From Alphaproteobacteria bacterium (lineage in GTDB: Bacteria; Pseudomonadota; Alphaproteobacteria; UBA9219): DNA of 64,000 nt. The translations under genes and the position numbers were made by a program. Below, piece by piece: positions 40,431-59,054 of the stretch. The stretch is taken from contig JAYRGC010000050.1 of the NCBI GenBank assembly GCA_041908065.1, positions 21,718 to 85,717 of the forward strand, in the 5' to 3' direction. How positions within the stretch are numbered: the first letter of the stretch is position 1; each line of letters opens with the position of its first letter. The notes beneath the pieces are model-generated. The model had not been told where the DNA came from. It saw nothing but the letters and a program-made list of their open reading frames with translations, and did not search any database.

Positions 40431-41444
40431 ATGGCTTTACGCTTTATCGACGGGTTCGAGCACTATGCCATCCCCGCTCAACTCAATCTGAAATATACCT
40501 CGGTCAGCAACACGTCGATCGGCTCCATGACGGGGCGACGCGCAGGATCGACCGCGCTCAAGCTCTACAACGGCGGCGACAAGGTCGCGATCACGCTCGA
40601 CGATCAGCCTGCATGGATCATGGGCTTTGCTTTCTACACGGATGTCAATTCGTCGAACAGTTCGAAAACTATCCAGCTTCTCGACTCCGCGTCCGCCGTT
40701 CAGTTGACGGTAAGCATCACCAACGGGATCGTGCAGCTGTATCGCGGCGACAGCAGCACGCTGCTTGCCACGGCGGCGCAAGCGCTGCAGGCGGGCGTTT
40801 GGAACTACATGGAGGTCAAGGCAACGATTGCGGATTCCGGCGGCACGTTCGAAGTGCGCGTCAACGAGCAGGTCTGGGTGACCTATGCGGGCGACACGAA
40901 ATACTCATCCACGCTCAGCACCGCTCGCACCATACGTCTCGGCTGCGCCTCGTGGGTCAACACGGGATTTCACGATCTCTATGTCTGCGACGGCACGGGC
41001 AGCGCGAACAACACTTATCTCGGCGATGTGCGCGTCGATACCGTCCGGCCCGTCGGTGCGGGCGCTTTGACGCAGTTTTCGCCGCAGGGAGGTTCTGTCA
41101 ACTGGGAGAACGTGGACGATCCCACGAGCGATGGCGATACGACCTACAACACGAGCGATACGGTGGGGCAGATCGACACTTTCGACTGCGCGAACCTCGC
41201 CGCCACGAATAGCGTGATTTCCGGCGCGCAGGCGAACGTCATGGCAAGGAAAGACGACGCGGGATCGCGAACCTTGCGCGCGCTCACGCGCATCGCTTCG
41301 GCCAACTATGAAGGCGCGGACATTGCGATGGCCAGCGATTACTGCGTATGTCGCCAGCTATGGGAGGAAAATCCGGCTACGGCGGCTGTGTGGACTGAAT
41401 CCGACATCAACGCCGCCGAGTTCGGCTACAAGGTGCAAGCCTGA
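40431..41444 (+). CDS. Hypothetical tail fibre-like protein
   Basis: Beta-rich, position after DUF2793. Confidence 0.35.
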   Translation: MALRFIDGFEHYAIPAQLNLKYTSVSNTSIGSMTGRRAGSTALKLYNGGDKVAITLDDQPAWIMGFAFYTDVNSSNSSKTIQLLDSASAVQLTVSITNGIVQLYRGDSSTLLATAAQALQAGVWNYMEVKATIADSGGTFEVRVNEQVWVTYAGDTKYSSTLSTARTIRLGCASWVNTGFHDLYVCDGTGSANNTYLGDVRVDTVRPVGAGALTQFSPQGGSVNWENVDDPTSDGDTTYNTSDTVGQIDTFDCANLAATNSVISGAQANVMARKDDAGSRTLRALTRIASANYEGADIAMASDYCVCRQLWEENPATAAVWTESDINAAEFGYKVQA

Positions 41445-41650
41445 TGCTGCGCGTCACGCAACTTGCGAACGAAATCGTTCGCCGCCCGAACAACCGCTCG
41501 CTGCGGGCGACGCAGGTGGCCACAGAGATTGTACGCCGCCCGTTATTGCCGCATCTGCGCGTCGGCCAACTCGTCGTGGAAGTCGTGCGCAAGAACAGCG
41601 CGCCATCCTCAAGCGCGCAGCAGCCGCTTGTCATTGTCATCGCGGGATAA
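41444..41650 (+). CDS. Small hypothetical protein with internal direct repeat (NEIVRRP / TEIVRRP)
   Basis: ATGA-coupled; repeated QLANEIVRRP...QVATEIVRRP. Confidence 0.3.
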   Translation: MLRVTQLANEIVRRPNNRSLRATQVATEIVRRPLLPHLRVGQLVVEVVRKNSAPSSSAQQPLVIVIAG

Positions 41651-41660: not shown

Positions 41661-41963
41661 ATGCCTCAACCACAAACACAACCCGCTCCTCAAGAGCAGG
41701 AACAGGAGAACACGTCCATGAGTCCAAATGAACAAGTCGAATTTTTCCGCAGCATCGGACGCCTTGAGGCGCAAGTCGCCGCGCTGGCCTCCGCCATGAC
41801 CGAAATGAAAACGAAACTCGATGGCATCGACGCGCGGCTCGACCAGCTCGACCGTTTGGCGAACAGGTGGAAAGGCGGCTTTGCCGTCATCCTGACCCTC
41901 GGCGCCATCGGCGGTTTCGTGCTCGATAACGTCCTGCGCTGGTGGACAAGCAAGGGGTCTTGA
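41661..41963 (+). CDS. Hypothetical coiled-coil protein with C-terminal transmembrane helix (holin candidate?)
   Basis: C-terminal GGFAVILTLGAIGGFVL hydrophobic stretch. Confidence 0.35.
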   Translation: MPQPQTQPAPQEQEQENTSMSPNEQVEFFRSIGRLEAQVAALASAMTEMKTKLDGIDARLDQLDRLANRWKGGFAVILTLGAIGGFVLDNVLRWWTSKGS

Positions 41964-42087
41964 AAGTGTTTCCAAATCGTGTAAACAGCGCCTCTTTATT
42001 CGCACAAAATGCCGATTATCTAGTTGATAATAAAGGCAGAAAGAGCGTTAATAGGAGTGTAAAAAGAACCCCGTTTAGGAGGACGCC

Positions 42088-42399
42088 ATGAGCAAGAAAC
42101 TGGTCTACAAAGCCCTCGCCGACGATGCCAGCCGCACGGAAAAATGCTCCGATGAACATCTCGCGATTTTTATAGCGATCTTTGAACACGCCGTGAAATC
42201 GACCGACGGCATCATGGCGGACAGAGCCTGTTTCGACTTGTCGAACTTCGCCATCGCCAAGGAAGGCGGTCTTGAGCGCTTCCGGCTCACGCTGGAGAAA
42301 GACTGCATGAACCGCAGGGACGAGTGGTGCGGCACTTTCGCGCACGGCATGAAAACCCTGAAAGTGTTCGCTGCCTTGGAAGAGGAGAAAGAATTGTGA
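42088..42399 (+). CDS. Paralog 1 of a tandem triplicated ~100-aa protein family (unknown function)
   Basis: AGGAGG RBS; aligns with the next two ORFs (Cys near aa 19-20, F.LT.E, EW.G.F motifs). Confidence 0.6.
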   Translation: MSKKLVYKALADDASRTEKCSDEHLAIFIAIFEHAVKSTDGIMADRACFDLSNFAIAKEGGLERFRLTLEKDCMNRRDEWCGTFAHGMKTLKVFAALEEEKEL

Positions 42400-42431
42400 G
42401 GCGATAAAACCGTCTGAAAAAGGAGAGCAAA

Positions 42432-42740
42432 ATGAACAGGAAAGAGTTTTGGATCCCCACGGTCGACGATGTGCAGAACGAGGGGTGCAGCGAGTTGGAG
42501 AGAGAGGTTCTTCTCGACATCTTCGAAAGCAAGATGAAAGAGATGGCATGCACGGCGCTTGACAAAGGGGTCTACCAATCCATCGACACTTTCTTCCTCG
42601 CCCAAAAGAACGAGGTCAAGGGCTTCGCTCTCACGATGGAACGTTACCCGCATGCGGGATTCGAACAATGGATCGGCGTGTTCGAGGCCGATGCGAAACG
42701 GATGAGAGCCTTCGGAACTTTGGTGGAGCCGACCGATTGA
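42432..42740 (+). CDS. Paralog 2 of the tandem triplicated family
   Basis: GGAGAG RBS; FALTMERYPHAGFEQWIGVFEADAKRMRAFGTLVEP. Confidence 0.6.
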   Translation: MNRKEFWIPTVDDVQNEGCSELEREVLLDIFESKMKEMACTALDKGVYQSIDTFFLAQKNEVKGFALTMERYPHAGFEQWIGVFEADAKRMRAFGTLVEPTD

Positions 42741-42775
42741 GAAAGTTTGAACCGACGCATATGAGGGAGGCAACT

Positions 42776-43078
42776 ATGGAAAAGCAAATTTACAACATCG
42801 CAGACCATTACGACCTGAAAAATAGGGGGTGTACTGACAAAGAAATCGACGGCCTTTGCGAAATCTTCGAACGCCTGATGTTGGAACAAGCCAACGGATC
42901 GCTCCGCAAGGGCGTTTATGATCTGAAGGACTTTGAAAGCGCCGCACCTCTTAAGATCGCGGACTTTACCCTGACGATGGAGCGCCGCGACCATCCAGAC
43001 GGCCCAGAATGGAAGGGCGTGTTTGAAGCCGAAGGCCGCTCAATGGAGGTTTGGGGAACGGTCGAGCCAGCCGCTTAA
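42776..43078 (+). CDS. Paralog 3 of the tandem triplicated family
   Basis: GAGGGAGG RBS; FTLTMERRDHPDGPEWKGVFEAEGRSMEVWGTVEP. Confidence 0.6.
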   Translation: MEKQIYNIADHYDLKNRGCTDKEIDGLCEIFERLMLEQANGSLRKGVYDLKDFESAAPLKIADFTLTMERRDHPDGPEWKGVFEAEGRSMEVWGTVEPAA

Positions 43079-43156
43079 TCGCAACCGACAATTTAACCGA
43101 AGCCGCCGCCCGCGAGGGTTGGCGGCTTTTTCTTTGCTCAAACGAAAGGACGTGTC

Positions 43157-43819
43157 ATGACGAACAAAACGCCCCCGCGCGGCATCCGCAACAACAACCC
43201 CGGCAACCTGCGCCGTACCAAAGACCCGTGGCAGGGATTGGCAAAAGAGCAGACGGATCCCGAGTTCTTCACATTCGAGAATCCGGTTTATGGCATCCGC
43301 GCGCTGGCGCGCGTGCTGATCGCTTATCAGGATGACCGTGGCCTTCGCACCATCCGCCAGATCATCGGTCGTTGGGCTCCCGCCACCGAAAACGACACGG
43401 CTGGCTATATCGAGTCTGTCGCCAAATCCACCGGCTTCGCGCCCGATCAAACGCTCGACTTGCACGCCTACGCCGACCTGAAACCCCTTGTCGAAGCCAT
43501 CATCCAGCACGAAAACGGCCAACAGCCCTACACGGGCGCACAGATCGACAAAGCTTTGGTTCTGGCAGGTGTGGAGCCTCCGGCCAAGAACCTGCAACAC
43601 ACGCGCACTGTAAAGGGCGGAAAGGCCGCCACGGCGGCAACCGTGGGCCTTGGGGCGCTACAGGCCGTGCAGGACGGCCTCGCGCCCGCCCGCGACACGC
43701 TCCAAACGCTCGTGCCGTATCTGGACGTTGCCAAATGGCTGCTTCTGGCCATCACGCTGATCGGTATCGGCGTGATGATCTGGGCGCGAATCGACGACCA
43801 CCGGAAAGGGCTGCGCTGA
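43157..43819 (+). CDS. Putative endolysin / cell-wall hydrolase with C-terminal membrane anchor
   Basis: Sits immediately upstream of the Rz/Rz1 pair; GIRNNNPGNLR motif; C-terminal TM helix WLLLAITLIGIGVMIW. Confidence 0.4.
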   Translation: MTNKTPPRGIRNNNPGNLRRTKDPWQGLAKEQTDPEFFTFENPVYGIRALARVLIAYQDDRGLRTIRQIIGRWAPATENDTAGYIESVAKSTGFAPDQTLDLHAYADLKPLVEAIIQHENGQQPYTGAQIDKALVLAGVEPPAKNLQHTRTVKGGKAATAATVGLGALQAVQDGLAPARDTLQTLVPYLDVAKWLLLAITLIGIGVMIWARIDDHRKGLR

Positions 43820-44058
43820 TGTTTGCCATCCTCACAAGCTGGCTGTCCAGCAACATGCTCAAAATCATCGGTTGGGGAGCGATTGCCGCGTCAGTAGCCG
43901 CCGTCCTCTTCGGTGCGCGCCAGTCAGGTCGTACCGCCGAACGCTACGACCAACTTAAGAAAATCGTGGAGGTGAAAAATGCTCAGTTACGCGCAGCAAT
44001 GGACGCTCCTCGCACTCGCGCTGACCTTGTTAAGCGCCTGCGGGACGGCAAGTTCTAA
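43819..44058 (+). CDS. i-spanin (Rz-like)
   Basis: N-terminal TM (MFAILTSWLSSNMLKIIGWGAIAASVAAVLF) then coiled coil; ATGA-coupled to the endolysin; o-spanin gene embedded in its 3' end. Confidence 0.6.
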   Translation: MFAILTSWLSSNMLKIIGWGAIAASVAAVLFGARQSGRTAERYDQLKKIVEVKNAQLRAAMDAPRTRADLVKRLRDGKF

Positions 44059-44212
44059 CCCCGCCTGCGTCTGCCCGCCGATCAAGGCGTACAGCAAGGA
44101 ACAACAGATCAAGCTGGCCGTCGAGATCGAAGCCGCGCCGCCCGATGCGACGTTTCCGAATGTTGTGCAAGACTACGCCGTGCTGCGCGCGCAACTGCGC
44201 GAGTGCAAATGA
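43979..44212 (+). CDS. o-spanin (Rz1-like outer-membrane lipoprotein), embedded/overlapping
   Basis: Lipobox LLSAC at residues 17-21, Cys- and Pro-rich mature part; overlaps the Rz 3' end in another frame. Confidence 0.6.
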   Translation: MLSYAQQWTLLALALTLLSACGTASSNPACVCPPIKAYSKEQQIKLAVEIEAAPPDATFPNVVQDYAVLRAQLRECK

Positions 44213-44421
44213 TCGAGACGAAGGGGAAGGCGTTGAGATTGCTTGGGACACTTGAGCCGGAGGGGTGAGCAGTCGCCCCCACATCATTTTTCCTGTCAGG
44301 CCGCCCGCGATGAAACGCCGGAGGCTTTTTCTTTGACCAAAACCACAGGATATGGCATTGCGATCACAGAAAACCTTTAAAGTAGTGCAAGCTTTTATCC
44401 AGTGAAGGGGCACGGTAGCAA

Positions 44422-44727
44422 ATGAGCAACGTCATTGAAGGCTGTTTCGGCCCCAAGAAAACTCTGCGAATGAAGGCAGTGGCCTATCAACGCGACCTTA
44501 AGACAACGGCAAATCTCGGCTATGAAGAAAAGTTTGCTTCGCTTCTCGATCTGTGCGACGAGGCAGCATCCGGCGCATTTGATGTGGTGATTATCGCTTA
44601 TCCCGAAATCCTTGGTGACTCCGAGGAGGAGATCATCCGCAACCTGTCGCTGTTGTCGGATGCGGGACTGCTTCTGGTCGTCGCGCAGAAAAGCCCGCGC
44701 CTCATTGAGGCAGCGAATGTGCCGTAA
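44422..44727 (+). pseudogene. Degenerate serine recombinase (resolvase) N-terminal domain remnant
   Basis: MKAVAYQRDLKTT... resembles the resolvase start MKAVAYLRVSTxxQ but lacks the catalytic Ser and the HTH domain. Confidence 0.4.
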
Positions 44728-44735
44728 ATGACGAC

Positions 44736-45033
44736 TTCAGGCTAACGATCGAAAAACACCTCAACGCCGGAGCCGAACAATGGATCGGCATTTTCGTGGC
44801 CGAAGGTAAGAATCTGCGCTCCTCGCACTCGCACTCGCGCTGATCTCGTTAAGCGCCTGCGTAACGGCAAATTCTAATCCCGCCTATGTCTGCCCGCCAA
44901 TCAAGGAATATAGCAGGGAGTTTTAGGAGAGGCTTGCGGCAGAGGTTGAATCCGCACCTGAAGGTTCAGCGTATCCTGAAGCGCTTATGGATTACGGCGT
45001 CCTTCGAAATCAGGTGTCATTATGTCAGTAAGT
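44736..45033 (+). pseudogene. Decayed remnants: C-terminal fragment of a fourth paralog (44736-44841) fused to a degenerate copy of the Rz-3'/Rz1 region (44815-45033)
   Basis: FRLTIEKHLNAGAEQWIGIFVAEGKNL matches the paralog C-terminus; the next ~210 bp are ~75% identical (by eye) to 43995-44212 with an in-frame TAG. Confidence 0.55.
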
Positions 45034-45046
45034 GCAGCTATCTACG

Positions 45047-45658
45047 CTATGGTTCGCAAAGAGTACCGTTTTTGAAAGTCCGCACATTTTTTCTTTCAAA
45101 GAGACTCTCTACTCGTTGGATGGCTGCTAGGATGCTCGTCGTTTTGCTCTGAATCGTTTGCGTGACTAGGTGGTTGTCACCGTATCGTGAAATGATCTCG
45201 TCAAGACGCTCCTGAGCGCTGAGGTTTTGGCCCTCTGGCCCTGTGGTCATATCAGAAAACAGAAGTGCATCAGATGCATTAGAGCCTTCATTCGGAAAGG
45301 CGCTGAGACACTGTTCGAATCCGCGCAATTCGGCCTCGGAAGCTGCACAGGAATGATGTGCGACAAGTGCCGTAACACGATCCTCAAACCCTTCCTCCAA
45401 AAGCCATCGCGCCCCATCCAAGGGATGAAATTGGGTTTTGGCTATGTCTGGAGCGTATCCTATGTCATGAAGCCACGCGGCTACAGTCAAAACTCGAGCC
45501 TCGTCGGCATCGAATAAAATGGCCCCGATCTTTTCGGCTTTTGCCGCTACCGCTTGGACATGAAGCCAGCGTTTTGGCAACGGGGTCTCCAAATGATCTC
45601 GTGCAATCCGCCGAGCCTCCTCTACAGAACACACCTTTCGACTGCCTTTTTGCATCAT
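45047..45658 (-). CDS. HD-domain metal-dependent phosphohydrolase/oxygenase-family protein
   Basis: H...HD...H...H...D pattern (WLHVQAV, WLHDIGY, ALVAHHS); start uncertain (45658/45655/45721). Confidence 0.55.
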   Translation of the reverse strand: MMQKGSRKVCSVEEARRIARDHLETPLPKRWLHVQAVAAKAEKIGAILFDADEARVLTVAAWLHDIGYAPDIAKTQFHPLDGARWLLEEGFEDRVTALVAHHSCAASEAELRGFEQCLSAFPNEGSNASDALLFSDMTTGPEGQNLSAQERLDEIISRYGDNHLVTQTIQSKTTSILAAIQRVESLFERKNVRTFKNGTLCEP

Positions 45659-45683
45659 TTTCTCATTTACTCGCGCCCATGAA

Positions 45684-46340
45684 CTAATGGGATGCATCAG
45701 ACGCATACTTGTAATCGACAATCCAGTAGTAGGAAAGACGTTTAATGTTTATATCCGTTGCGATTCCTTTGAGTATATCCTTGAACTCCTGATCGCTCGG
45801 GAAATTTTTAAGAACCTCATGCTCGCTTCCGTCTGGCAGCTTGCGGGTTTGGTATGTATTGCCGCCGTCATCTGTTCTGGTGATGGGGTGGTTGCTGCCC
45901 TCAACATAGTGGTTGTCTATGAAAACGACTGTGGCTCCATGTTCCAGCTTCGAATGAAAAACATCTAAGAAACTTTTTATCTTTGCCCTTGGAATATGTG
46001 ACCACCAAAACCCAGCAAATCCCGCCGTGAATTTTCCGGAAACCTTTGAAAGCGAGTACGCGTCTTCTTGCATGAATCGTGCATTGGGCAGGTTCTTCTC
46101 TTGGGCGATTTCTAGAACTTCTGCGCTTTGATCTGTGCCCAAGATGGATGCAGCCGTTTTTGCACGCTCTGTCCAGTAACCGGTTCCGCAAGCGATTTCT
46201 AATACGTCATGCCCATTCAAGATTTTTTGTAACTCAAGGGAAAGATTTGCAAGATCCTCTTGTCTTTCCGGCTTTTCGTAGATTTTTTCATAAACTCGTG
46301 CGCGGCGGTTGTAATATTCCTTCAGGGCTTCATCGTTCAT
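45684..46340 (-). CDS. Class I SAM-dependent methyltransferase
   Basis: Motif I VLEIACGTGYWT, motif post-I ILGTDQS, motif II ARFMQEDA. Confidence 0.7.
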   Translation of the reverse strand: MNDEALKEYYNRRARVYEKIYEKPERQEDLANLSLELQKILNGHDVLEIACGTGYWTERAKTAASILGTDQSAEVLEIAQEKNLPNARFMQEDAYSLSKVSGKFTAGFAGFWWSHIPRAKIKSFLDVFHSKLEHGATVVFIDNHYVEGSNHPITRTDDGGNTYQTRKLPDGSEHEVLKNFPSDQEFKDILKGIATDINIKRLSYYWIVDYKYASDASH

Positions 46341-46379
46341 TTTTCATCTCCTTTTGCGGGGCAGGGTTTGAGCACTTTA

Positions 46380-47813
46380 TCACCCAAACCATAAAACAGA
46401 TACCGTTTTAACATTCGTATAAAAGCGCATAGCTTCTACCAATCCTTCTTTGTGACCCAATCCTGATCCCTTAACCCCGCCGAATGGCGACATTTCCGTA
46501 CGAAAACTAGGCACTTCTCCAATGTTGACGGATCCAACACGCAGTCTTTTGATGAATTGTAAGGCAGATGGCCAATGGCTCGTGCACACACCGGCGCTCA
46601 ACCCGAACTCCGTTCCATTGACGATACGTATCGCATCTTCGTTGGTCTTGAAACGAATTATGGGAGCAACCGGACCAAACGTTTCTTCTGCGACGAGGGT
46701 GCTTGCAGGAGAGACATGGTCAAGCACCGTCGGGTGATATAAGGCTCCTTGTCTTTTGTGTCCCAAAAGAAGTTTGGCACCATCCTTAATGGCTCCATCG
46801 ACCCTTTTTTCAATTTGGCGAGCGGAATTCTCGTCTATTACCGTTCCGACATCTGTTTCTTTATTGGAGGGATCTCCGCAAACTAGCTTTGCCGCACGTC
46901 CTACAACCTTGTTAACGAAATCATCTGCTTTTTCTTCTGCCACTAAAATCCGTTTTATGGCTGTACAACGTTGTCCAGAGTTTCCAAACGCGCCGCGCAC
47001 AGCAAGGTCGGCAGATTCATCTAAATTGGCGTCGGGAAGAACAATAAGCGCATCATTGCCTCCCAATTCAAAAAGGAGCTTTTTATACGAGGCTTTCTGG
47101 GCCAGAATCTTGCCTACAGCGGTGCTTCCTGTAAAAGCCAAGACTTCTACGTCTTTGCTCTGCACAAGTTCATCGGCCATTTCAACGGCTGGACCTGTCA
47201 CTACTGACAACATTTCCGGAGGTAGGCCGGATTCATGAAGTATCTTTGCAAAGCGATATGCGGAAAGCGGGGTTTTTTCCGACGGTTTCAAAATTACACA
47301 ATTATTCGTCGCAACGCCGGGAGCAACTTTATGTGCAACCTGACAAAGGGGATGATTGAAAGGAGTTATTACCCCAATAGATGTGACGGGTTCACGGAAG
47401 GTTAGAATTTTTCTTGTCTTCCCGTCACGATTGACATCTCCTGCATAAATATCTGCATCTTCCTGCAGACATAAAGCACTCGCAAAAGTCAAAACGTCCT
47501 GTGCGCGACAAACTTCGTTCTTTGCATCCTTCCAGCAAAGTCCCGTTTCAGCGATAACCAATTGGGCCAGATCTTCTGCGCAATCTTCCATTAATTGAGC
47601 CGCTTTTGAAAGAATTCGGCTGCGTTCGTGACGTGTTAATCCGGCCTCATAGTTTGCGGCAACATCGATAGCCTTCTGTATTTGCTCACGAGAAGCGGAA
47701 GAAACTTCCCCAGTTAACCCCTTTGTAAAGGGGTTATAGACGGATATGCGGTCAGTCGTTTCAATCTGATTGCCGCCAATAAGCAACGGTTCATAGTATG
47801 ATTGGTTCACCAT
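46380..47813 (-). CDS. NAD(P)-dependent aldehyde dehydrogenase (candidate phosphonoacetaldehyde dehydrogenase, PhnY-like)
   Basis: Catalytic Cys context GQRCTAIKRILV and Glu FELGGNDA; ATG MVNQ preceded by AAGGAG (the ORF-track M upstream is TTG). Confidence 0.7.
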   Translation of the reverse strand: MVNQSYYEPLLIGGNQIETTDRISVYNPFTKGLTGEVSSASREQIQKAIDVAANYEAGLTRHERSRILSKAAQLMEDCAEDLAQLVIAETGLCWKDAKNEVCRAQDVLTFASALCLQEDADIYAGDVNRDGKTRKILTFREPVTSIGVITPFNHPLCQVAHKVAPGVATNNCVILKPSEKTPLSAYRFAKILHESGLPPEMLSVVTGPAVEMADELVQSKDVEVLAFTGSTAVGKILAQKASYKKLLFELGGNDALIVLPDANLDESADLAVRGAFGNSGQRCTAIKRILVAEEKADDFVNKVVGRAAKLVCGDPSNKETDVGTVIDENSARQIEKRVDGAIKDGAKLLLGHKRQGALYHPTVLDHVSPASTLVAEETFGPVAPIIRFKTNEDAIRIVNGTEFGLSAGVCTSHWPSALQFIKRLRVGSVNIGEVPSFRTEMSPFGGVKGSGLGHKEGLVEAMRFYTNVKTVSVLWFG

Positions 47814-47838
47814 TTCGATCTCCTTAAAAATCAATTAC

Positions 47839-48999
47839 TCATTCGCCACCAGTACCTGAAGGACATTCGAGTTTGTTTGTTCTTATTGCTGCCTTCAAAG
47901 GTCGTTTTGCCGCATAGGCTGTAAGTGCTTCATCTACAAAACCATGAAGTTGAGCAAGCCCATGATTAGAGTGGACATCAATGCCATGTAATCCGACTTT
48001 TTTATGCAGTCTCTCGATGCCTGACTCGAGATTGCAAACCGGTCCACAAACTATTGGCGTGGTGTATCCCCACTCTTTAAGAAAATGCATTGCACCAAAC
48101 GCCCCCAAAGCATCATTTGCCGAAAGAACAACGAGGGCAACATTTTGCCGAAACTCAGGTTTTATTAAAGCTTCTGGTATGCCCGCCCAAATGATATCTC
48201 CTCCGGCCTCTGCCACAACGACATCTGTGTCTAGAGATGCGGCCCGTATTACGTCGACGGCTACATTTCCGGCTCTATTTGAATCGCCATAAGTTGAAGG
48301 CAGGCCCATATCAACAAAATCAACTGCGCGGATGGCTCCGCCATCTTTTAAGTGTGCAATGTCACGCAGCCGACCGGTTCCGCTGATTTTTGCAGCGCCA
48401 ACCCGATGGAATTTCGATAGGTGTTCTATTATTCGGCGAGTAACCGTGGTCTTGCCGCATTCTGAAGACGTTCCAACAACCATGACAACGGGGGAGATCA
48501 AGTCAGCCTTGGCCTTTGAATTCAACTGGAGCAAATTCATATTCTTGCCGTTCTCATTTAGGATGCCCAACAGTCTTACACGAGCAGCCGGAATGGGCTG
48601 AACCTTGGCTGCAGCATTGCGGCTGTAAGAAGGATATGAGGTGCAGATCCCGACTCCTCCAGCATTTGCCAAAATATCGGCTTCACCCGGAATAGCGAGG
48701 CCTCCCTCTGGGACATGCCCGACGAGAGACACACCAGAATCTCTGTGGCAAACCGTTCCGATGAATCTTTCGCCCTTTTTCAAATCGTGCAGACTGACAT
48801 CCGAGCGTTCAATGGCTGTAATAGCCCCCTTTTCAGACAGCATTTCTGCAACTACTAAATCGCCTTCGTTGGCCTTACCCTCAACTAAAGAAGCTGCCTT
48901 AACGCGGGCAACTGCTTCTTGGCTCCGAAGGTTTGAAGGAAAAACATCAATTTTAATATCCGCCACGCGAACGTCTTTTTTAGAAATGTCATTTTGCAT
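47839..48999 (-). CDS. Uncharacterized P-loop NTPase (DUF1611/CobQ-BioD-like fold)
   Basis: Walker A VVGTSSECGKTTV at mid-protein; start ATG MQND after AGGAAA. Confidence 0.4.
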   Translation of the reverse strand: MQNDISKKDVRVADIKIDVFPSNLRSQEAVARVKAASLVEGKANEGDLVVAEMLSEKGAITAIERSDVSLHDLKKGERFIGTVCHRDSGVSLVGHVPEGGLAIPGEADILANAGGVGICTSYPSYSRNAAAKVQPIPAARVRLLGILNENGKNMNLLQLNSKAKADLISPVVMVVGTSSECGKTTVTRRIIEHLSKFHRVGAAKISGTGRLRDIAHLKDGGAIRAVDFVDMGLPSTYGDSNRAGNVAVDVIRAASLDTDVVVAEAGGDIIWAGIPEALIKPEFRQNVALVVLSANDALGAFGAMHFLKEWGYTTPIVCGPVCNLESGIERLHKKVGLHGIDVHSNHGLAQLHGFVDEALTAYAAKRPLKAAIRTNKLECPSGTGGE

Positions 49000-49025
49000 A
49001 AGTTCTTTTCCTTTCAACAGTTGTA

Positions 49026-50057
49026 CTATCCCACATCAAATGTGCCGATTTTCTTGGGTCTAAACCATCTTACGGGTCTGAAGCTTTTCTCCAGTTCATG
49101 GTCCACACCAAGAATCAAGGAGAACAGAGCCATCCTGATAAGCAAGCCATTGTCGGTTTGCTTGAAAATTACCAGTCTGGGATCCCCATTAAGGTCCGTG
49201 CTTAAATCATATGCATCGGACCTGCTGTCGCGTGGCAAAGGATGCATGATGACCACGTCATCTTTTGCGTACGCCTGCACGATGTTTTGCTTAATTTGGT
49301 GATTTGGCCTCAGGCTTGTGATTAGATTTTGCTCTTCAAGCCGTTCTTTTTGAAGCCTAGTTGCGTAAATAACATCTGCAACCTTAAGCCCCTCCTCAAG
49401 AGTCCCCGCCTCGGTAAAGGAGTGTCCAAATTTAGATGCATATTTGATGACTTCTTGTGGAAGGCCAAAATGTTCGGGATGAACAAGAACGTATTTTATG
49501 TCCTTGTATAGGCACATAAGATAAACAAGCGAGTGAACAGTGCGGCCATACTTCAGATCGCCGGTAAGAGCGATTGTCGAGCCATCAACAGGTTTTCCTC
49601 TTTTTTCGAGTTCCTCTTGAAGCGTGTAAACATCCAGCAGTGCCTGCGTCGGATGCTCTTCAGGCCCACTCCCTCCATTGATAACGGGAATGTTTGTGGC
49701 ACTGCAAAATTCCTTTATTGCAGCCGGATCTGGGTGACGGATCAGGATGATATCGTAAAATCCACTCGTTACCCGACTCGTGTCAAAATAAGATTCTCCC
49801 TTAACAATTGAGGTAATGCCTTCTCCTTGAGTGTGGGACACGGCTCCACCGAGACGCATGAAGGCCGCATCGAAACTCAACCGCGTTCTTGTGCTGGGTT
49901 CAAAGAACATGCTGCCCAGCACGGCTCCGCGCAAAATGTCTGTGCAGACATCTCCCGTCGCTATAGGCTTAACGAGTTTGGCAAGTCTGAACAATTCGTC
50001 CAAATCTTCTCTGTCGACGCTTTTTACCGAAAGAAAATGTTTGCCTAAGAATCCCAT
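49026..50057 (-). CDS. Aspartate/ornithine carbamoyltransferase-family protein (ATCase/OTCase fold) with C-terminal extension
   Basis: Carbamoyl-phosphate-binding STRTR (FFEPSTRTRLSF), HPTQ (HPTQALLD), HPLP (IMHPLPR) motifs. Confidence 0.65.
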   Translation of the reverse strand: MGFLGKHFLSVKSVDREDLDELFRLAKLVKPIATGDVCTDILRGAVLGSMFFEPSTRTRLSFDAAFMRLGGAVSHTQGEGITSIVKGESYFDTSRVTSGFYDIILIRHPDPAAIKEFCSATNIPVINGGSGPEEHPTQALLDVYTLQEELEKRGKPVDGSTIALTGDLKYGRTVHSLVYLMCLYKDIKYVLVHPEHFGLPQEVIKYASKFGHSFTEAGTLEEGLKVADVIYATRLQKERLEEQNLITSLRPNHQIKQNIVQAYAKDDVVIMHPLPRDSRSDAYDLSTDLNGDPRLVIFKQTDNGLLIRMALFSLILGVDHELEKSFRPVRWFRPKKIGTFDVG

Positions 50058-50070
50058 GGTCAGCTCCGTT

Positions 50071-51225
50071 TCAAGGCGTGAATTTCGAGCTAAAGGATAC
50101 CATGTGTTCCCTAAACATTAAAGCGCGCTCAGGGAGATCAAGTTTTGGCCTTTCCACAACCTTTATGGTTAACGGTGCGATCCTAATATGTAAAAAATTA
50201 GGGCCGTCAAAAGGATCAATTGAATGCAGCGCTTCTTTTACAGCTTCTTTGCCAGAGCAAGACCAAACAGAACGATAGCCGCAAGAGAGGGCAACGCCGG
50301 AGAAATCCACCGCATTCGCATTGCTGGGTTGTCCACCAGTTGACTCGAAGATGCCGTTATCGAGCACGACATGGGTAAGATTGCGGGGGGACATTTTCCC
50401 GATGGTTGCGCAGTTTCCCATTTTCATGAGCAATGCGCCGTCACCGTCTAACACGGTGACGGGGTGTGCGCAGTTCATCGCGACGCCCAATCCAATTGCC
50501 GAAGCGTGCCCCATTGAACCAGCCATATAAAAATTGTTGGCCTTATCATGGCATTTGTATGCTTCACGATACGCATAACCGGTCGTCGCAATGACTGCGT
50601 GATTGCTAAACTCCTCCATGATTTGGGCTATGGTAGAGGCTCTATCTCCAATAGGCCCAGCAGTTACGCGTTTCACCGTTGGTCTTTCTCCCGAGGAAAT
50701 TAGAGAGGGCATTGTGCTCTGCGTTTTCGCATTCTCGATAGTCTTGGGATTTATCAAAAACGCTCGGCTATTCCTGTCGGCGAGTTCCTGTTTTGCGCAT
50801 CTCATCTCAGCAAGAGCATCTAGCCATTCACATGGCAGAACGGTTGTTTTAACTCCAAGTAGCTCCAAGAGCGGGCCGGAAGTTCTTCCCATAATCTCGT
50901 GCTGGGCCTCATCCTTAAATCCAACTGCGCCGCGCATAGAGATAAATAATGACACGGGTATCTGGTAGGGTTGGCAAAGAGACGCTATAGGATTCACCAT
51001 GTTTCCAAGACCTGAATTTTGACAAATCACTCCTGCTTGTTTTCCGGCCAGCCAGTATCCGGCAGCAATTGCACAAGCTTCTCCTTCCGTGGTTGCCGGT
51101 ATGTACCGAAGTAAATCTGTCGTTTCCAGATCTTTAAAAACAGACGACAAATTGGAACATGGCACTCCAATCAGAGCAGCATGATTCTGAGCTACCACTT
51201 CGATGAAATCCTCCGATTTGATCAT
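50071..51225 (-). CDS. ppd: Phosphonopyruvate decarboxylase (TPP-dependent)
   Basis: ~384 aa, TPP-enzyme pyrimidine- and PP-binding halves, ATGA-overlapped with the PEP mutase gene as in ppm-ppd cassettes. Confidence 0.6.
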   Translation of the reverse strand: MIKSEDFIEVVAQNHAALIGVPCSNLSSVFKDLETTDLLRYIPATTEGEACAIAAGYWLAGKQAGVICQNSGLGNMVNPIASLCQPYQIPVSLFISMRGAVGFKDEAQHEIMGRTSGPLLELLGVKTTVLPCEWLDALAEMRCAKQELADRNSRAFLINPKTIENAKTQSTMPSLISSGERPTVKRVTAGPIGDRASTIAQIMEEFSNHAVIATTGYAYREAYKCHDKANNFYMAGSMGHASAIGLGVAMNCAHPVTVLDGDGALLMKMGNCATIGKMSPRNLTHVVLDNGIFESTGGQPSNANAVDFSGVALSCGYRSVWSCSGKEAVKEALHSIDPFDGPNFLHIRIAPLTIKVVERPKLDLPERALMFREHMVSFSSKFTP

Positions 51226-52106
51226 GGCATTAGTTCCTTTGGTTTTTGTTGTCTGTTGTATTTTCTTTCCTCTGATGGCAGTAAATCCATGCCAGTGAGG
51301 GACAGCACTTCCTTGACGGTTACCATGTTTGAAACACCGCGTGGATCTTGTTGTTCAAGTAACTCTCTTGACGCATTTTTTAAGGCCAAGATTTGCGCAC
51401 GCAGAAGCTGATTGGCCCATATGATACCTTTGACGCTTTTCAATCGCGGAATAACAGGAGCGATAGAGCTATAGTAAGTCGTGGGGACAATCACGATAGG
51501 ATTTGGTTTATCCCAGTCTTCTATAAAACGAACGATATCAGACGCTTCTTTAGATTTCGAGTGAATCAGAATTGCGTCGGCACCTGCTTCTGCATAAAGA
51601 TTGGCGCGTTCTTTAGCTACATCAAGGCCTTGTCCTACGATTAAAGCCTCAACCCTGGCGACAAGAAACATGTCGTTTCCGAGCGCATCTTTTATGGCCC
51701 GTATCTTTCCGCAGAAAGTTTCCTTGTCTTCGAGCTCTTGACCTGCGGACATGAGAGAGTTTCTCTTCGGAAAAACCTGATCCTCAATGGATATGCCTGA
51801 GGCCCCAGCTTTGAAAAGTTTCTTGGCAAAGAACCGAGCAATATTGAAATCGCCATGCCCATTATCTCCATCGACAAGGATAGCGGCTTGTGTTGCGGAG
51901 GCGATGTTCTCTGTCGCAGCGACGACCTCGGCCCAAGACAATTCTCCAAAATCACGACGTCCTTGAACGGTGCTTAATCCCAGGCTTGAGACCCAAATGG
52001 AATCAAAGCCAGCCTGTTCTGCGACTATAGCCGACAGCGCATCATGGCATCCAATAATGTATGTCGGGGCCGTATTCGACAACTGCGTTCTCAATAAATT
52101 TGTCAT
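51222..52106 (-). CDS. ppm: Phosphoenolpyruvate phosphomutase (ICL/PEPM superfamily)
   Basis: WVSSLGLS, ILVDGDNGHG (DxD), and IEDQVFPKRNS spacing E-x5-K-x-N-S as in PEPM active site rather than ICL KRCGH; AAGGAGG RBS. Confidence 0.7.
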   Translation of the reverse strand: MTNLLRTQLSNTAPTYIIGCHDALSAIVAEQAGFDSIWVSSLGLSTVQGRRDFGELSWAEVVAATENIASATQAAILVDGDNGHGDFNIARFFAKKLFKAGASGISIEDQVFPKRNSLMSAGQELEDKETFCGKIRAIKDALGNDMFLVARVEALIVGQGLDVAKERANLYAEAGADAILIHSKSKEASDIVRFIEDWDKPNPIVIVPTTYYSSIAPVIPRLKSVKGIIWANQLLRAQILALKNASRELLEQQDPRGVSNMVTVKEVLSLTGMDLLPSEERKYNRQQKPKELMP

Positions 52107-52146
52107 TTTATCCTCCTTAAAATTAACGATTCAGATTTTGTTACAC

Positions 52147-52920
52147 TTAACCGAACATGGGGTTTGAAAACGTGAGGCATCGTCCTGCGGACAACCTCCC
52201 ACAAAGCTCCCCCAATGATCCCCCTTTATTGGCAGCAGACAAAAACGATGGAAGGCCTGCTACGACAACATCCACAAATGGATATCCGGTTCTCTCTCTT
52301 TTGTTGTCTACGATAAGCGCTGTCCACATCCCACATTTTTTGGAATAAAAAAGGTTTTCAGGCGTATCATCGACCATGATTGTTCTGGCAGCAGAGGCCT
52401 TCATCTGAGACAGCACATATGTAAAGGGGGCGATGGAATCTGATTTCCTTTGGAACCCAATTTCTTCCAATGTGAAAATAGATTCGTCTGGAAAATAGTT
52501 TTTGATACCAAGCGTGTTGAGAACCCGTGTTGCCCAAGACCTGTTTCCGTGAGTAAGCATCGCGCACGGAATGTTGAGGGTAGAGAATAGAGCAGGAAGA
52601 TCGCCCCTGCTTAAAACATTCTCTTCCTGCAAGCGATTGTGATAAGAGCGATGTAGCTCAGTCAGCGAAATGCCGCATGCTGTGAATGCCTCGTAATACG
52701 TTTTATGCTTTTTACGCGAGGCAAGAGCCATTTGTCTTGCTTGTTTTTCAGTCAGCAACGGGACAAGATCCATAGCTACTTGTGTCGCCACGCTAAAACA
52801 ATGATTTTGAAAGACAGGCGTGTCTTCAAACATGACTCCATCGTTGTCGAAAACGATTAGGTCTATCTTCTTGCTTGTACAAGAAGAACTGTTCTTAGAA
52901 ATTTCGTTCGACTGCATCAT
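52147..52920 (-). CDS. HAD-superfamily hydrolase/phosphatase
   Basis: Motif I LIVFDNDGVM (DxDG), first gene of the operon after an AT-rich promoter region. Confidence 0.6.
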   Translation of the reverse strand: MMQSNEISKNSSSCTSKKIDLIVFDNDGVMFEDTPVFQNHCFSVATQVAMDLVPLLTEKQARQMALASRKKHKTYYEAFTACGISLTELHRSYHNRLQEENVLSRGDLPALFSTLNIPCAMLTHGNRSWATRVLNTLGIKNYFPDESIFTLEEIGFQRKSDSIAPFTYVLSQMKASAARTIMVDDTPENLFYSKKCGMWTALIVDNKRERTGYPFVDVVVAGLPSFLSAANKGGSLGELCGRLSAGRCLTFSNPMFG

Positions 52921-53154
52921 TTACCCTCCAGTAGCACCAAGGTTATCTCAAACAGACAGCTTATCCAACAAACAATCATAGTTAACAGTTTGATTTATAA
53001 TCAATTATCGCCCTTTTGGGTTTTGGATTTTTGCCGAAAACCACCATATTGAGTATCTAAACTCGTTTTTTTCCATCAAGTTGTTCCTTTTCGCCATTCT
53101 CCGTCTATTTTTTCGTACCTTCCCAATTTAGGAAGGTGACTCCGTTTTCTTCCA

Positions 53155-53667
53155 CTACAGCAATGACCGGCTGTTATATTTTTCCCGCCCCACCTTCGCC
53201 GTTTCATCGTGTTCGTTTCTGATCTCTTCTGAAACCAGAACGCGATGGGCTGCCTCAACCAGCGAACGGACAAGGTTGCTCTGTCCGCCGGACGTTCTGA
53301 AAAATGTTTCCTTGCTCATGAAGCGGCGGTTTTGACATTGCTCCGGCCATGTGGCTGCTTCGCCTGCCATGCGTCCAACAAAAACGATTGTTTGCGCGAT
53401 TTCGTTCTGCCGACCCTTGGTCTTGATGGCCGTGACGGGCTTCACGAGGCCGAGGGCGATGTTTGCGCTCTCGAAAACCTCGCGCCGCGCTGCGGCCTCG
53501 GCATCGTCGTCGTCCCATTCCACACATCCGCCAGGAAGGACAAAGCGGTTTTTGTTCTTGATCGCCAGCACGCAATTTTGATCGTCGAAAACAACGATTT
53601 TGACGTATTCGATTTCCTCTGCGTTCAGCGATTGCTCGGGAACAAAACAAGGATTTGTGTTAAGCAT
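53155..53667 (-). CDS. NUDIX hydrolase
   Basis: Nudix box GGCVEWDDDDAEAAARREVFESANI; GGGAGG RBS before ATG MLNTN. Confidence 0.7.
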   Translation of the reverse strand: MLNTNPCFVPEQSLNAEEIEYVKIVVFDDQNCVLAIKNKNRFVLPGGCVEWDDDDAEAAARREVFESANIALGLVKPVTAIKTKGRQNEIAQTIVFVGRMAGEAATWPEQCQNRRFMSKETFFRTSGGQSNLVRSLVEAAHRVLVSEEIRNEHDETAKVGREKYNSRSLL

Positions 53668-53932
53668 AACGCGCCTCCCGTTCATAATAGGAGCCGATGC
53701 CGTTCTCTCTGCACCGAAGCTCAATGACGGCCAGCGCATTGGCGAAGTGCCAAAGGGCAGCTACATCCTGATGGGCAAAGCCCAAGGCAAGAAGGTCTTG
53801 CTGCTCGCAGTTGCCGATCTCCAGTGTCATCTCAACGATTGTGTCAGCCATGCGAGCCACCGGTTCAAATCTCTTATCCGTTTCAGAGGTGATCTGATCG
53901 ACGATGCGGCGGTATTTGATTGCTTTAGCCAC
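53660..53932 (-). CDS. Hypothetical protein
   Basis: Overlap-coupled ORF within a minus-strand operon. Confidence 0.35.
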   Translation of the reverse strand: MAKAIKYRRIVDQITSETDKRFEPVARMADTIVEMTLEIGNCEQQDLLALGFAHQDVAALWHFANALAVIELRCRENGIGSYYEREARYA

Positions 53933-54332
53933 GGGGCGCCTCCCTGATTTCAGGGATGGAAGCCATTACGCGAACAACGCCTGTGTACGAAAGAGCCAAC
54001 GTATGACCGGTCGGGTCGCAACCGGCAGGGATCGTAATGGCCGTCTCATAACGGACAAACTGGATGCCTCGACGGGCAAAGGTCGTAACAAGCGTCTCCA
54101 TTGTCGATTTTTGCGGGATGTATACTCCGTGCTCGATGTTTTTGATCGTTTCCGCAGATATCTTTGCTTCTTTGGCAAGATCGCTACGTGACCAATCGAG
54201 CATGCTGCGCGCGGCACGCAGTTGCGAGGCCGTGAAAACGCAGGACATGATCGCGTACATGGGGCCGGACGGCGTACCGACGTCAGAATTGTTTTTGGCG
54301 TTCGTCGGATCAAAAGGCGGCTTGGAAATCAT
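53925..54332 (-). CDS. XRE-family HTH transcriptional regulator
   Basis: TASQLRAARSMLDWSRSDLAKEAKISAETIKNIEHG; GGGAGGA RBS, ATGA coupling to the upstream gene. Confidence 0.6.
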   Translation of the reverse strand: MISKPPFDPTNAKNNSDVGTPSGPMYAIMSCVFTASQLRAARSMLDWSRSDLAKEAKISAETIKNIEHGVYIPQKSTMETLVTTFARRGIQFVRYETAITIPAGCDPTGHTLALSYTGVVRVMASIPEIREAPRG

Positions 54333-54763
54333 TGGTATCCTCCCGCTTTTCTGTCCTCAATTTCCTCATCGAGATAACGCAGCACCAGATCGGCCAGTTT
54401 CTCTACTGAAGCTTCCGCATAGAACAGCCATTGTTTCCGACGCACCTTGCGCTGCTGGAGGCGGTCATAAAACTGGATGAGTGTTTCCCGATCTTCGGGC
54501 AAATGCGTCTGTTCACGCTTTTGCAAATCTTCGATGTGCATGTTGATCGCGGCGTCGATCTTCGTTGCCCACTTGTCTTCAGCAAGATCGATGGTCTGCT
54601 CAGGAAATGTTCGCTGAAGGTGAAAATCGCAAAACTCGTCCATGAGTCTGGCGAGGGCGATTATTTTATTAACGGACTCCTTCGATCTTCCGTTCTCGCC
54701 GTGCGTAATCATGCTCTGAAACGCCAGCATGAGGGCCATGCGCATTTGTTCGTCTTTAGTCAT
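54329..54763 (-). CDS. Hypothetical protein
   Basis: GGAGG RBS before ATG MTKDEQ. Confidence 0.4.
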   Translation of the reverse strand: MTKDEQMRMALMLAFQSMITHGENGRSKESVNKIIALARLMDEFCDFHLQRTFPEQTIDLAEDKWATKIDAAINMHIEDLQKREQTHLPEDRETLIQFYDRLQQRKVRRKQWLFYAEASVEKLADLVLRYLDEEIEDRKAGGYQ

Positions 54764-55052
54764 GACAGCCTCCGATAACCAAGGCCTGTGGCCAGAAGCG
54801 CGACAACAAACGCGCAAATCGCTCAATCGTATTCAATTCGCGTGTGGAAGGCTGAGGGAGCGGGGAATTGGCGAGATAAAGGAAAGTGATCCCATGCATC
54901 TTGACGGCCTGCGTAAACGCATCGCGCTCGGTATCAGATGCGAAATTGTCTTGAATGATCTCAAGGACAGTGGCCTCTGAACATTCTGGACGGGCCATCA
55001 GTGCCTGCGCCTTGGCGAGAGGCAATGCGATTGCTGTGTTGTCGTTCGTCAT
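54756..55052 (-). CDS. Hypothetical protein (start uncertain)
   Basis: ORF continuing the operon; weak RBS. Confidence 0.25.
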   Translation of the reverse strand: MTNDNTAIALPLAKAQALMARPECSEATVLEIIQDNFASDTERDAFTQAVKMHGITFLYLANSPLPQPSTRELNTIERFARLLSRFWPQALVIGGCHD

Positions 55053-55099
55053 AAAATGCTCACTGATGTCGTTGATCAATGAGGCGAGTATCAATATCT

Positions 55100-55215
55100 C
55101 CAACGCGTGATTCCACAGGAGAATTTGGACTTTTTGCCCATATTCAGGGGGGCAATTTGGACGAATTTCTAATTTGGACTTTTTGATCAAAATTTTGGAC
55201 TTTTTTCCTGATAAA
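55100..55215. promoter_or_regulatory. Four direct repeats of (A)ATTTGGAC(T)TTTT in an AT-rich intergenic region
   Basis: aatttggactttttg / caatttggacgaattt / taatttggactttttg / aaattttggactttttt. Confidence 0.5.
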
Positions 55216-55465
55216 AAATAGGCTGGCGGCGTGACCGCATGAAAGAATAGGCGATGATCGTTTGAAACGGCAATTTCAGAGAGAACACTCAACACGACAA
55301 AAAGCAATCGCCGTTTTTATCAGGCGATCCCTTTTTTCTTGGCACTTTTAATCAGATGAAAAGATGTGTGGGAGGATAGCGCGATATCCGATTGGTTCTT
55401 GGCAGCTCCATGCCTTGACAGGTACAGGCAAAACCGAGGTGCTTTAACTGCACAGAAAAGGCGGT

Positions 55466-56236
55466 TCAGTAGCAAGCCTGCCGTTCTGGTTCGTTGCAGC
55501 CATCCAGCTGTGGCATCCGATGGCTGAAATTCGGCGAAGCCCTTTTTGCGGTAGATGTCGTATATGGTTTGGCTTCAAGCCACCGTTTCTCGAAGTGTTC
55601 GAACGTCTTTTTCACCAGTTTAGGCGACTCGAATACCACGTAGACCGGTTGGCGAAAATTGAAGCGCATGTCTTGCTCTATGGCGAAAGTGACTTCATCG
55701 CCATAGGCAAAGTCGCAGGAGACACAGTTGACGGGCGGTTCGTGATACACCCTGACTTCGAAAGAAGGGCCTCTCGGAAGATATATGTTCTGATCCGCCA
55801 GCAGGCACTTTACAGAGACGACTTTGCTAAGGTTTTGCAGGCGGTCGAAATTCGTCAATCCATTCCGCCCCGTGACCTTCGTTAACATGCCTTGGCTTCC
55901 GATCCTGCACACAACACCTGAAGCTTTGTCCTTGAGCATCTTTTCGATGTTGTCGAAAAAGCGGTCGCAGCTGCCAAGCCCACGGAAATCCTTAACGCCA
56001 TCTGAGCGCGGTCTGACGCTGCCGTCCGGCAGGCATTCGACGCCATGAGCGTCAAAGACGCTTTGTATGTCCAGGATGATGGACTCGCGAACGGGCGCAT
56101 CGTCTTCGAATGTGCAAATGGTACCGCGCGCGACATTCGCTTCGTGTGCCAGCTTTTCACGAGACCACTTCAACAATGATCTCGCCATTCTGCTTTGTGC
56201 GCCTGTTATGAGATAAACTTCGGTCATGGTTGTCAT
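55466..56236 (-). CDS. XRE-like HTH domain protein with ~180-aa C-terminal domain (paralog of 57355-58035)
   Basis: N-terminal ITGAQSRMARSLLKWSREKLAHEANVARGTI; C-terminal region alignable to the 57355 protein. Confidence 0.55.
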   Translation of the reverse strand: MTTMTEVYLITGAQSRMARSLLKWSREKLAHEANVARGTICTFEDDAPVRESIILDIQSVFDAHGVECLPDGSVRPRSDGVKDFRGLGSCDRFFDNIEKMLKDKASGVVCRIGSQGMLTKVTGRNGLTNFDRLQNLSKVVSVKCLLADQNIYLPRGPSFEVRVYHEPPVNCVSCDFAYGDEVTFAIEQDMRFNFRQPVYVVFESPKLVKKTFEHFEKRWLEAKPYTTSTAKRASPNFSHRMPQLDGCNEPERQACY

Positions 56237-56241
56237 TCGCC

Positions 56242-56535: not shown

Positions 56536-56556
56536 GGAGAAATGGCTCCTTAAAAA

Positions 56557-59051: not shown

Positions 59052-59054
59052 AAC

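Follow-up and report, generated by a model that had tools for sequence, protein, structure and literature searches.

Three tandem paralogues in front of an endolysin gene

The DNA analysed here, hereafter the window, is a stretch of 64,000 nucleotides (nt) of contig JAYRGC010000050.1 from an alphaproteobacterium and carries a prophage in which three consecutive forward-strand genes, A, B and C, precede an endolysin gene. Their products belong to one protein family for which the working name FAM is used; L- and P-numbers designate related loci and related proteins, respectively. The locus is composed of the following features (aa, amino acids; pI, isoelectric point).

41661-41963, + strand: upstream backbone gene, 100 aa, coiled coil at the N-terminus and one transmembrane (TM) segment at the C-terminus
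42011-42055, + strand: promoter- or operator-like motif, with the inverted repeat ATTATC (42015-42020)/GATAAT (42026-42031), a -35-like TTGATA (42024-42029) and a conserved GCGTTAAT (42045-42052)
42088-42399, + strand: FAM paralogue A, 103 aa, pI 5.6, with the ribosome binding site (RBS) AGGAGG at 42077-42082
42432-42740, + strand: FAM paralogue B, 102 aa, pI 4.7
42776-43078, + strand: FAM paralogue C, 100 aa, pI 4.7
43099-43136, + strand: G+C-rich, terminator-like hairpin with a 3' U-run, 20 nt from the endolysin start, with a fold of -21 to -24 kcal/mol
43157-43819, + strand: endolysin, 220 aa (phrog_873 "endolysin", E 3e-67), the downstream backbone gene

That three homologous genes follow one another, each with its own RBS, had been proposed from the letters of the sequence (the original prediction) and was confirmed by the open reading frames (ORFs), by Shine-Dalgarno-like sequences located 5-8 nt 5' of the starts (AGGAGG, AAGGAG and GGGAGG for A, B and C, respectively), by BLASTP and by a hidden Markov model (HMM) of the family. 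Gene C in fact begins with the ATG at 42776, and not at 42668 as in the ORF list that had been supplied, and the spacers A/B and B/C are of 32 and 35 nt. In pairwise BLASTP, B and C share 41% identity (E 2e-20), while A is more distant from both (25% with B, E 3e-10; 23% with C, E 1e-7). Each of the three is recovered by the family HMM with E ~1e-30, and the only other match in the window is a fragment, with no further full-length copy. The Cys at position 19/20 and the motifs KG.Y, F.LT.E and EW.G.F, all previously listed, are seen in the alignment of A, B and C. These data show that the three genes form one operon of anciently diverged paralogues belonging to an undescribed family of ca. 100 aa.

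Their history does not correspond to the tandem triplication that had been suggested. The A, B and C types have closer relatives in other prophages than among one another, the nearest relative of A elsewhere being P0019, which occurs as a single copy in L004, and the number and order of the copies that occupy the same slot differ from one locus to the next:

one copy: L001, L002, L004 and L010
two copies, C-like then B: L005-L008
two copies, B-like then C: L009
two copies, a 97-aa type then C: L012
three copies: the window

Because each type has closer orthologues elsewhere, and because copy number and order differ, the trio is not the product of a recent or local triplication.

A family of 221 clusters without match in the libraries searched

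A word-indexed search gave 20 relatives of FAM. An exhaustive HMM search of 1.84 billion representatives extended the family to 221 clusters at E <= 1e-3 (111 at E <= 1e-10), with a length of 95-110 aa in nearly all clusters. Orthologue pairs display ratios of nonsynonymous to synonymous substitution (dN/dS) of 0.06-0.19, which shows purifying selection; the values are 0.06-0.13 for paralogue B against its orthologues and 0.11-0.12 for the orthologues of C in L009 and L012, which have 71-83% identity. In one metagenomic protein, P0023 (209 aa), two FAM domains are naturally fused, a situation from which it may be supposed that these domains work in pairs.

The AlphaFold2 model of paralogue B is confident (predicted local distance difference test, pLDDT, 88; predicted template modelling score, pTM, 0.81), with the order beta-alpha-beta-alpha-beta-beta-beta. 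The median pI of the family is 5.4. FAM proteins are soluble, mildly acidic alpha/beta proteins of ca. 100 aa. Their most conserved positions are mainly hydrophobic (L67, W80, G82 and F84) and no catalytic-looking invariant residue was found among 95 members. A catalytic role of the Cys at position 19/20 was discarded: V, I or L takes its place in ca. 25% of these members, which argues for a buried residue. A DNA mimic of the Ocr/ArdA type was also judged unlikely, FAM being only mildly acidic and having no fold match.

The view that no known domain is recognisable, and that the family is undescribed, held in every library searched. Neither Pfam, PHROGs nor NCBIfam gave a match for A, B and C. 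PADLOC-DB v2 defence profiles matched neither A, B and C nor P0025 and P0023. When 95 diverse relatives were scanned, none reached the Pfam gathering score and a single one matched PHROGs (E 9e-4). A profile search of PDB sequences gave nothing significant (best E 0.12), Foldseek gave no match at E < 0.07 in the PDB and BFVD, and no similarity to a known immunity family or to a solved anti-defence protein was found in sequence or fold. Megablast of the region against cultured phages and a scan of viral contigs seeded with P0028 gave no match, and an alignment of B-type FAM matched one genome among species representatives. No description of FAM was found in the literature searched, in which a family without a name could not be targeted directly.

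The FAM operon is inserted in front of the endolysin gene

In ca. 30 loci that were gathered via FAM itself, FAM is always located just 5' of an endolysin gene, and two unrelated types of endolysin are concerned, the 220-aa type found in the window and a GH24 Phage_lysozyme. This constant adjacency, together with a 4-nt overlap of the FAM and endolysin genes in some loci (see below), suggested a core gene of the lysis cassette, a possibility that the many relatives without FAM rule out. Such relatives were found by searches seeded with the endolysin and with a 3-TM holin. In 16 of 19 alpha-type relatives, which have neither FAM nor the promoter-like motif, the upstream gene adjoins the endolysin gene, and the two relatives with the most similar endolysin (80% identity) are devoid of FAM. 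The same arrangement, upstream gene then endolysin directly with no FAM and no motif, occurs in 22 GH24-type relatives. Homologues of the 41661-41963 gene are among the genes found directly 5' of the endolysin in FAM-less relatives; its product, which matched no curated family, may be a holin, another lysis-associated protein or the product of the last gene of the late operon.

Base composition also sets the insert apart, with a GC content of 0.51-0.53 for the A-C block vs. ca. 0.60 in the flanks; in 12 other loci FAM is 3-10 points below its flanks, and the GC content drops in every backbone. Overall, these data show that the FAM operon is an accessory insertion (moron) with the coiled-coil/TM gene on one side and the hairpin and endolysin gene on the other. 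The moron-like character that the original prediction had proposed is therefore supported by the absence of the cassette from the closest relatives, by its own conserved promoter-like motif and by a GC content 5-10 points under that of the flanks. Its placement between tail and lysis modules proved too simple, the junction lying immediately 5' of the endolysin gene and its leader hairpin.

Other positions are also seen. FAM follows the endolysin gene in Ralstonia phage YO084_2, and the endolysin or the lysis cassette in betaproteobacterial-type loci. Distant members were detected after tail genes resembling those of gene transfer agents (GTA), where they are interleaved with PhdYeFM/ParE/DUF6290 genes without an endolysin, on an element with a MobA/MobL relaxase, near a Gp49/HigB-like pair, and on plasmids of Candidatus Megaera.

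A promoter-like motif travels with FAM

The motif found at 42011-42055 has counterparts 35-45 nt 5' of every first FAM gene. It consists of a -35-like TTGAYW, often in a TTAT-N7-ATAA inverted repeat, and of GCGTT(A/C)AT 16-17 nt further on, this second element being replaced by a canonical TATAAT in two loci. It accompanies FAM on alpha-type, GH24-type, GTA-like and betaproteobacterial-type backbones and is absent where FAM is absent. A generic sigma-70 scan did not call the motif at the FAM operon as a promoter. In L004, a ca. 52-codon ORF (9773-10000) for a very basic, Lys/Arg-rich peptide is located between the motif and the FAM gene.

The strict pattern has three sites in the whole window, one before A and two on the minus strand near 21 kb, while a relaxed pattern gives six matches vs. 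1.2 expected. The minus-strand sites precede two genes:

20923-21150, - strand: 75-aa gene, motif at 21189-21214
21292-21696, - strand: DUF3489 gene, 134 aa, motif at 21725-21750

Both genes share the form TTGATAA-N11-GARGCGTTCAT with the FAM operon, so that the prophage appears to have an accessory regulon of three promoters. Since the strict pattern is found only at A and at these two minus-strand accessory genes, the main late operon is not driven from this motif. The two accessory genes have a ParB-like/DNA methylase gene on one side and the small terminase gene on the other.

The hairpin at 43099-43136 has a different distribution. It occurs in FAM loci but also in L034, L035, L040, L041, L042 and L052, which have no FAM; it was therefore rejected as a terminator belonging to the moron, and the cassette is best described as a promoter-like motif plus genes inserted 5' of a pre-existing hairpin. 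An Rfam search of the leader found no structured RNA. The hairpin is only ca. 20 nt away from the start codon of the endolysin gene, and expression of the endolysin and spanin genes seems to depend on read-through or antitermination.

Defence genes at the endolysin junction

In other phages, opposite-strand cargo is found directly after FAM and corresponds to an HrgA-like gene, to PDC-S11 (which contains DUF4268; E ~1e-126) or to the Gabija genes GajA and GajB (E 1e-229 for GajB). Among loci that were found without reference to FAM, this cargo was seen only where FAM is present. These observations show that the endolysin junction is a hotspot in other phages, in which FAM is the constant plus-strand occupant beside reverse-strand defence genes. 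FAM also occurs alone in many loci.

The HrgA-like proteins (304-328 aa, "HrgA protein" in NCBI) have a conserved N-terminal domain and a PD-(D/E)xK-like motif, PDxVG...SFE(V/A)K. They matched neither Pfam nor PADLOC, and PF04373 gave no match at E <= 0.1 with three representatives. The gene product is a putative winged-helix + PD-(D/E)xK nuclease, with which its size and motif agree. The same architecture, winged helix + PD-(D/E)XK, has been predicted for HrgA/DUF511, with a cellular function described as "not obvious" in PMC3045609 (2010).

The association of these genes with FAM is close. When viral contigs were scanned with the HrgA-like protein as the sole seed, 60 loci were obtained, many of which are from related phages. 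FAM directly adjoins the HrgA-like gene tail to tail (convergent) in 59 of these, the stops being separated by -4 to +9 nt, and is ca. 450 nt off in the remaining one. Within the betaproteobacterial-type subfamily, the convergent pair was found in ca. 36 of the 40 loci with downstream sequence. Three related alphaproteobacterial-type loci (L001, L002 and L008) have an HrgA-like gene, and in each of them the adjoining FAM is of the B type. Moreover, the two genes co-diverge (r = 0.83, 91 pairs), with FAM changing ca. twice as fast. A variant found at L033 5308-6231 (= L043 2954-3877) shares the N-terminal domain of ca. 100 aa but not the C-terminal half, which is unrelated, and also faces FAM tail to tail; it hints at a possible swapping of effectors on a common N-terminal module. 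No HrgA-like gene was found in the 64-kb window, and its three FAM genes are thus orphans.

Possible roles of FAM

The original prediction had placed such arrays among superinfection-exclusion, anti-defence or immunity-like proteins. The neighbours (Gabija, PDC-S11, the HrgA-like nuclease and toxin-antitoxin (TA) modules) fit this class, which is suggested by genomic context, and FAM probably has a role in conflicts between phages. The function that we tentatively propose, as a possibility, is that of a small non-enzymatic binder or inhibitor of the HrgA-like nuclease, with the orphan trio of the window acting as counter-defence or immunity. FAM proteins would neutralise or gate HrgA-like nucleases, and a phage armed with the nuclease for the protection of its lysogen would spare its own lytic growth by carrying FAM on the late-gene strand (self-immunity). 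In a phage having FAM without the nuclease, as in the window, FAM would provide counter-defence, or an orphan immunity, against the nucleases of resident prophages and islands, and three paralogues would broaden the range of nuclease variants covered. A promoter of its own would allow the operon to be transcribed up to the backbone hairpin without the endolysin being expressed. A broader proposal, which is more doubtful, is that FAM and the HrgA-like protein constitute a new phage-borne defence module with a protein partner for self-immunity or gating, located at the endolysin junction in many temperate phages of Alpha- and Betaproteobacteria, and that orphan arrays are counter-defence against this module.

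Arguments for a nuclease inhibitor are the 59 convergent pairs among 60 viral loci, the co-divergence of the pair, the occurrence of FAM alone and in 1-3 copies, a binder-like character (no catalytic-looking invariant residue, a pI of 4.7 for B and C) and the members found where there is no endolysin, which do not tie FAM to lysis. Several points weigh against it. The near-absolute linkage seen in viral contigs could reflect one old cassette spread by recombination, that is, linkage without interaction. Near-identical FAM proteins adjoin an HrgA-like gene, PDC-S11, Gabija or nothing, which indicates that FAM is not tailored to its neighbour. In metagenome contigs searched with the same query, FAM is adjacent in 46 of the 71 informative loci and absent in 25, so that the HrgA-like nuclease can exist by itself and does not require FAM as an antitoxin; the FAM-less loci inspected were mostly chromosomal islands or decayed prophages. 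These 25 loci, and the convergent orientation of the genes, also led us to rule out an obligatory type II TA pair. Finally, FAM has the appearance of a gene integrated in the lysis operon in eight GH24-type loci, where its stop and the start of the endolysin gene share 4 nt (ATGA).

The first alternative, which we regard as rather unlikely, is that FAM is a defence or superinfection-exclusion factor expressed in the lysogen, or a required sensor or regulatory subunit of a FAM + HrgA-like system, with orphans working alone or with other effectors. The association with Gabija, PDC-S11, HrgA-like and TA genes is consistent with such a factor, as are the long co-divergence of the FAM/HrgA-like pair, a putative promoter that is not of the late-operon type and is followed by a downstream hairpin, and the presence of the same motif before two reverse-strand accessory genes of the prophage. 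However, a 100-aa protein that lacks enzymatic and DNA-binding motifs as well as TM segments would be an unusual stand-alone effector, FAM is on the late-gene strand whereas the defence cargo is on the reverse strand, and a required subunit is difficult to reconcile with the third of metagenome loci in which the HrgA-like gene occurs without FAM.

The location of FAM raises the question of an accessory lysis regulator, either a cytoplasmic antiholin comparable to T4 RIII or P1 LydB, or a modulator of the endolysin. Within or beside the lysis cassette in ca. 90% of the loci examined, FAM is associated with two unrelated endolysin types, and the ATGA overlaps suggest translational coupling; antiholins are moreover typically dispensable and patchy in distribution. 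Such a role is nonetheless improbable: the closest relatives have no FAM in otherwise identical cassettes, the operon has a putative promoter of its own and a deviating GC content, and FAM occurs with different holin-like partners or with none. It is also found 3' of the endolysin gene in Ralstonia phage YO084_2 and in betaproteobacterial-type loci, as well as on a relaxase-bearing element and among TA genes where there is no endolysin, and three divergent copies are hard to reconcile with a timing regulator.

Clusters of immunity genes are typically tandem arrays of divergent, small, soluble paralogues, and FAM might likewise be an orphan immunity protein or antitoxin against other toxins (bacteriocins, polymorphic toxins or TA toxins), which mobile elements would carry for protection or anti-addiction, independently of HrgA-like nucleases. 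The members interleaved with PhdYeFM/ParE/DUF6290 genes or located near the Gp49/HigB-like pair, and the two-domain fusion P0023, would be in line with this role, which is very improbable given that the HrgA-like gene is the only consistent toxin-gene neighbour and that no known immunity family resembles FAM in sequence or fold. That the ORFs are non-functional leftovers or chance ORFs is refuted for all practical purposes by purifying selection, by the 221 metagenome clusters, by the confident predicted fold and by the conserved RBS and promoter-like motif. The probability left over by these explanations belongs to functions that we have not thought of.

Comparison with known systems

The kind of element is known, namely a moron in a phage defence hotspot. 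As in phage morons, the FAM cassette is an accessory unit between genes that are adjacent in relatives, with its own promoter-like element, a deviating base composition and a hairpin downstream; it departs from them in that the hairpin belongs to the backbone and in that GH24-type FAM is joined to the lysis operon by the 4-nt overlap. The moron concept goes back to Juhala et al. 2000 and Cumby et al. 2012, as cited in bioRxiv 10.1101/2024.10.15.618418. A fixed backbone position with interchangeable defence systems (here Gabija, PDC-S11 and the HrgA-like gene) is also the hallmark shared with the P2/P4 hotspots, whereas the FAM slot lies at the holin/endolysin junction of alpha- and betaproteobacterial phages and has a constant small gene, FAM, beside the variable cargo. 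Rousset and colleagues are said to have described in 2022 these P2/P4 defence hotspots of temperate phages and satellites.

With BstA/aba, the putative FAM/HrgA-like pair would share the logic of a prophage weapon from which the phage's own lytic cycle has to be spared, the presumed partner being tightly linked to the weapon. The immunity element of BstA is a DNA sequence inside the gene, whereas FAM is a separate convergent gene whose interaction with the nuclease is inferred. Small anti-defence proteins (anti-CRISPR, Ard/Ocr-type anti-restriction and Gad/Tad proteins) are small, soluble and often acidic, have no enzymatic motifs, are carried by phages or plasmids, evolve fast and have a strong promoter of their own. 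FAM resembles them in size, solubility and acidity, in the lack of an enzymatic motif, in its phage or plasmid location, in its fast evolution and in its putative promoter. It differs from them in having no sequence or fold similarity to solved examples, no gene for an Aca-like regulator and a location in the late rather than the early region. As for the partner gene, its product has the size of HrgA/DUF511 (PF04373) proteins (304-328 aa) and the same predicted N-terminal winged helix and PD-(D/E)XK motif, but gives no PF04373 match at the threshold used, and the excerpted text of PMC3045609 makes no mention of a FAM-like partner.

What is new, in the sense that it was not described in the libraries or literature searched, is the FAM family, its position at the endolysin junction, the mobile promoter-like motif and the pairing with HrgA-like genes. 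If the proposed function is true, a new protein family and a two-gene module would be added to phage-encoded defence and counter-defence, the holin/endolysin junction would be a defence hotspot in poorly studied temperate phages with GTA-like tails of Alpha- and Betaproteobacteria, and the pairing would suggest a first functional context for HrgA-like PD-(D/E)XK proteins. Three small genes and a single nuclease gene would suffice for a direct test of the idea. Should the mechanism prove wrong, the insertion polymorphism of FAM is still documented and the conserved mobile promoter-like motif is still a useful marker for cargo in these phages.

Relic of a second prophage and surrounding regions

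The fourth, decayed copy that had been reported at 44736-44841 exists as a fragment (44736-44816) and is not a member of the array:

44736-45028, + strand: relic, detected by tblastn and blastn, composed of a C-terminal fragment of B-type FAM (44736-44816) fused to i-/o-spanin remnants (44800-45028) with in-frame stops

The translation of 44736-44816, FRLTIEKHLNAGAEQWIGIFVAEGKNL, has 52% identity to residues 65-91 of B (HMM E 5e-8). Because the FAM fragment is fused directly to spanin remnants, the relic represents the right end of a second, related prophage. Its presence implies that a tandem or successive integration took place earlier and that ca. 1.1 kb was then deleted. Between the prophage end and the relic, a 101-aa ORF (44422-44727) has only weak, sub-threshold matches, to a resolvase N-terminal domain (E 0.09) and to DUF3052.

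In the resident prophage, the endolysin gene is followed by embedded or overlapping spanin genes:

43819-44058, + strand: i-spanin-like gene, weak Rz-like match
43979-44212, + strand: o-spanin-like lipoprotein gene, weak LysC/Rz1-like match

The endolysin has a C-terminal hydrophobic segment (ca. residues 190-212) and a classical multi-TM holin gene is not evident in the lysis cassette of the window. A second hairpin with a U-run is located after the spanins (44296-44366), has 72% identity over 67 nt to 43105-43166 and precedes AAAACCACAGGA, which recurs in the promoter region of the HrgA-like genes of L001 and L002. On the other side of the locus, 41444-41650 encodes a 68-aa protein with three repeats (L/A)R(V/A)TQ.A.E(I/V)VRRP that ends in PLVIVIAG; in L004 and L010, proteins of 276-277 aa have the same repeats as their C-terminus.

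The left end of the prophage probably corresponds to 7111-8027, where tRNA-Thr (7111-7185) adjoins a CI-like Peptidase_S24 repressor gene (7377-8027, - strand). A search for attachment (att) sites revealed no direct repeat of >= 11 nt between the tRNA-Thr region and 44150-46000. Beyond the relic, 45000-60000 has a GC content of 0.46-0.50 vs. 0.60 in the prophage and 0.57-0.64 in the left flank, is bounded on the right by tRNA-Pro (63757-63833) and is probably another genomic island. Finally, a second variable slot was found in the same group of prophages, in the gap between the tape-measure gene and DUF2460; it is occupied in L002 by a reverse-strand gene (1668-2522) with a weak HEPN match and in L005 by an HTH_31 gene (1746-2147) of the XRE-type helix-turn-helix (HTH) class.

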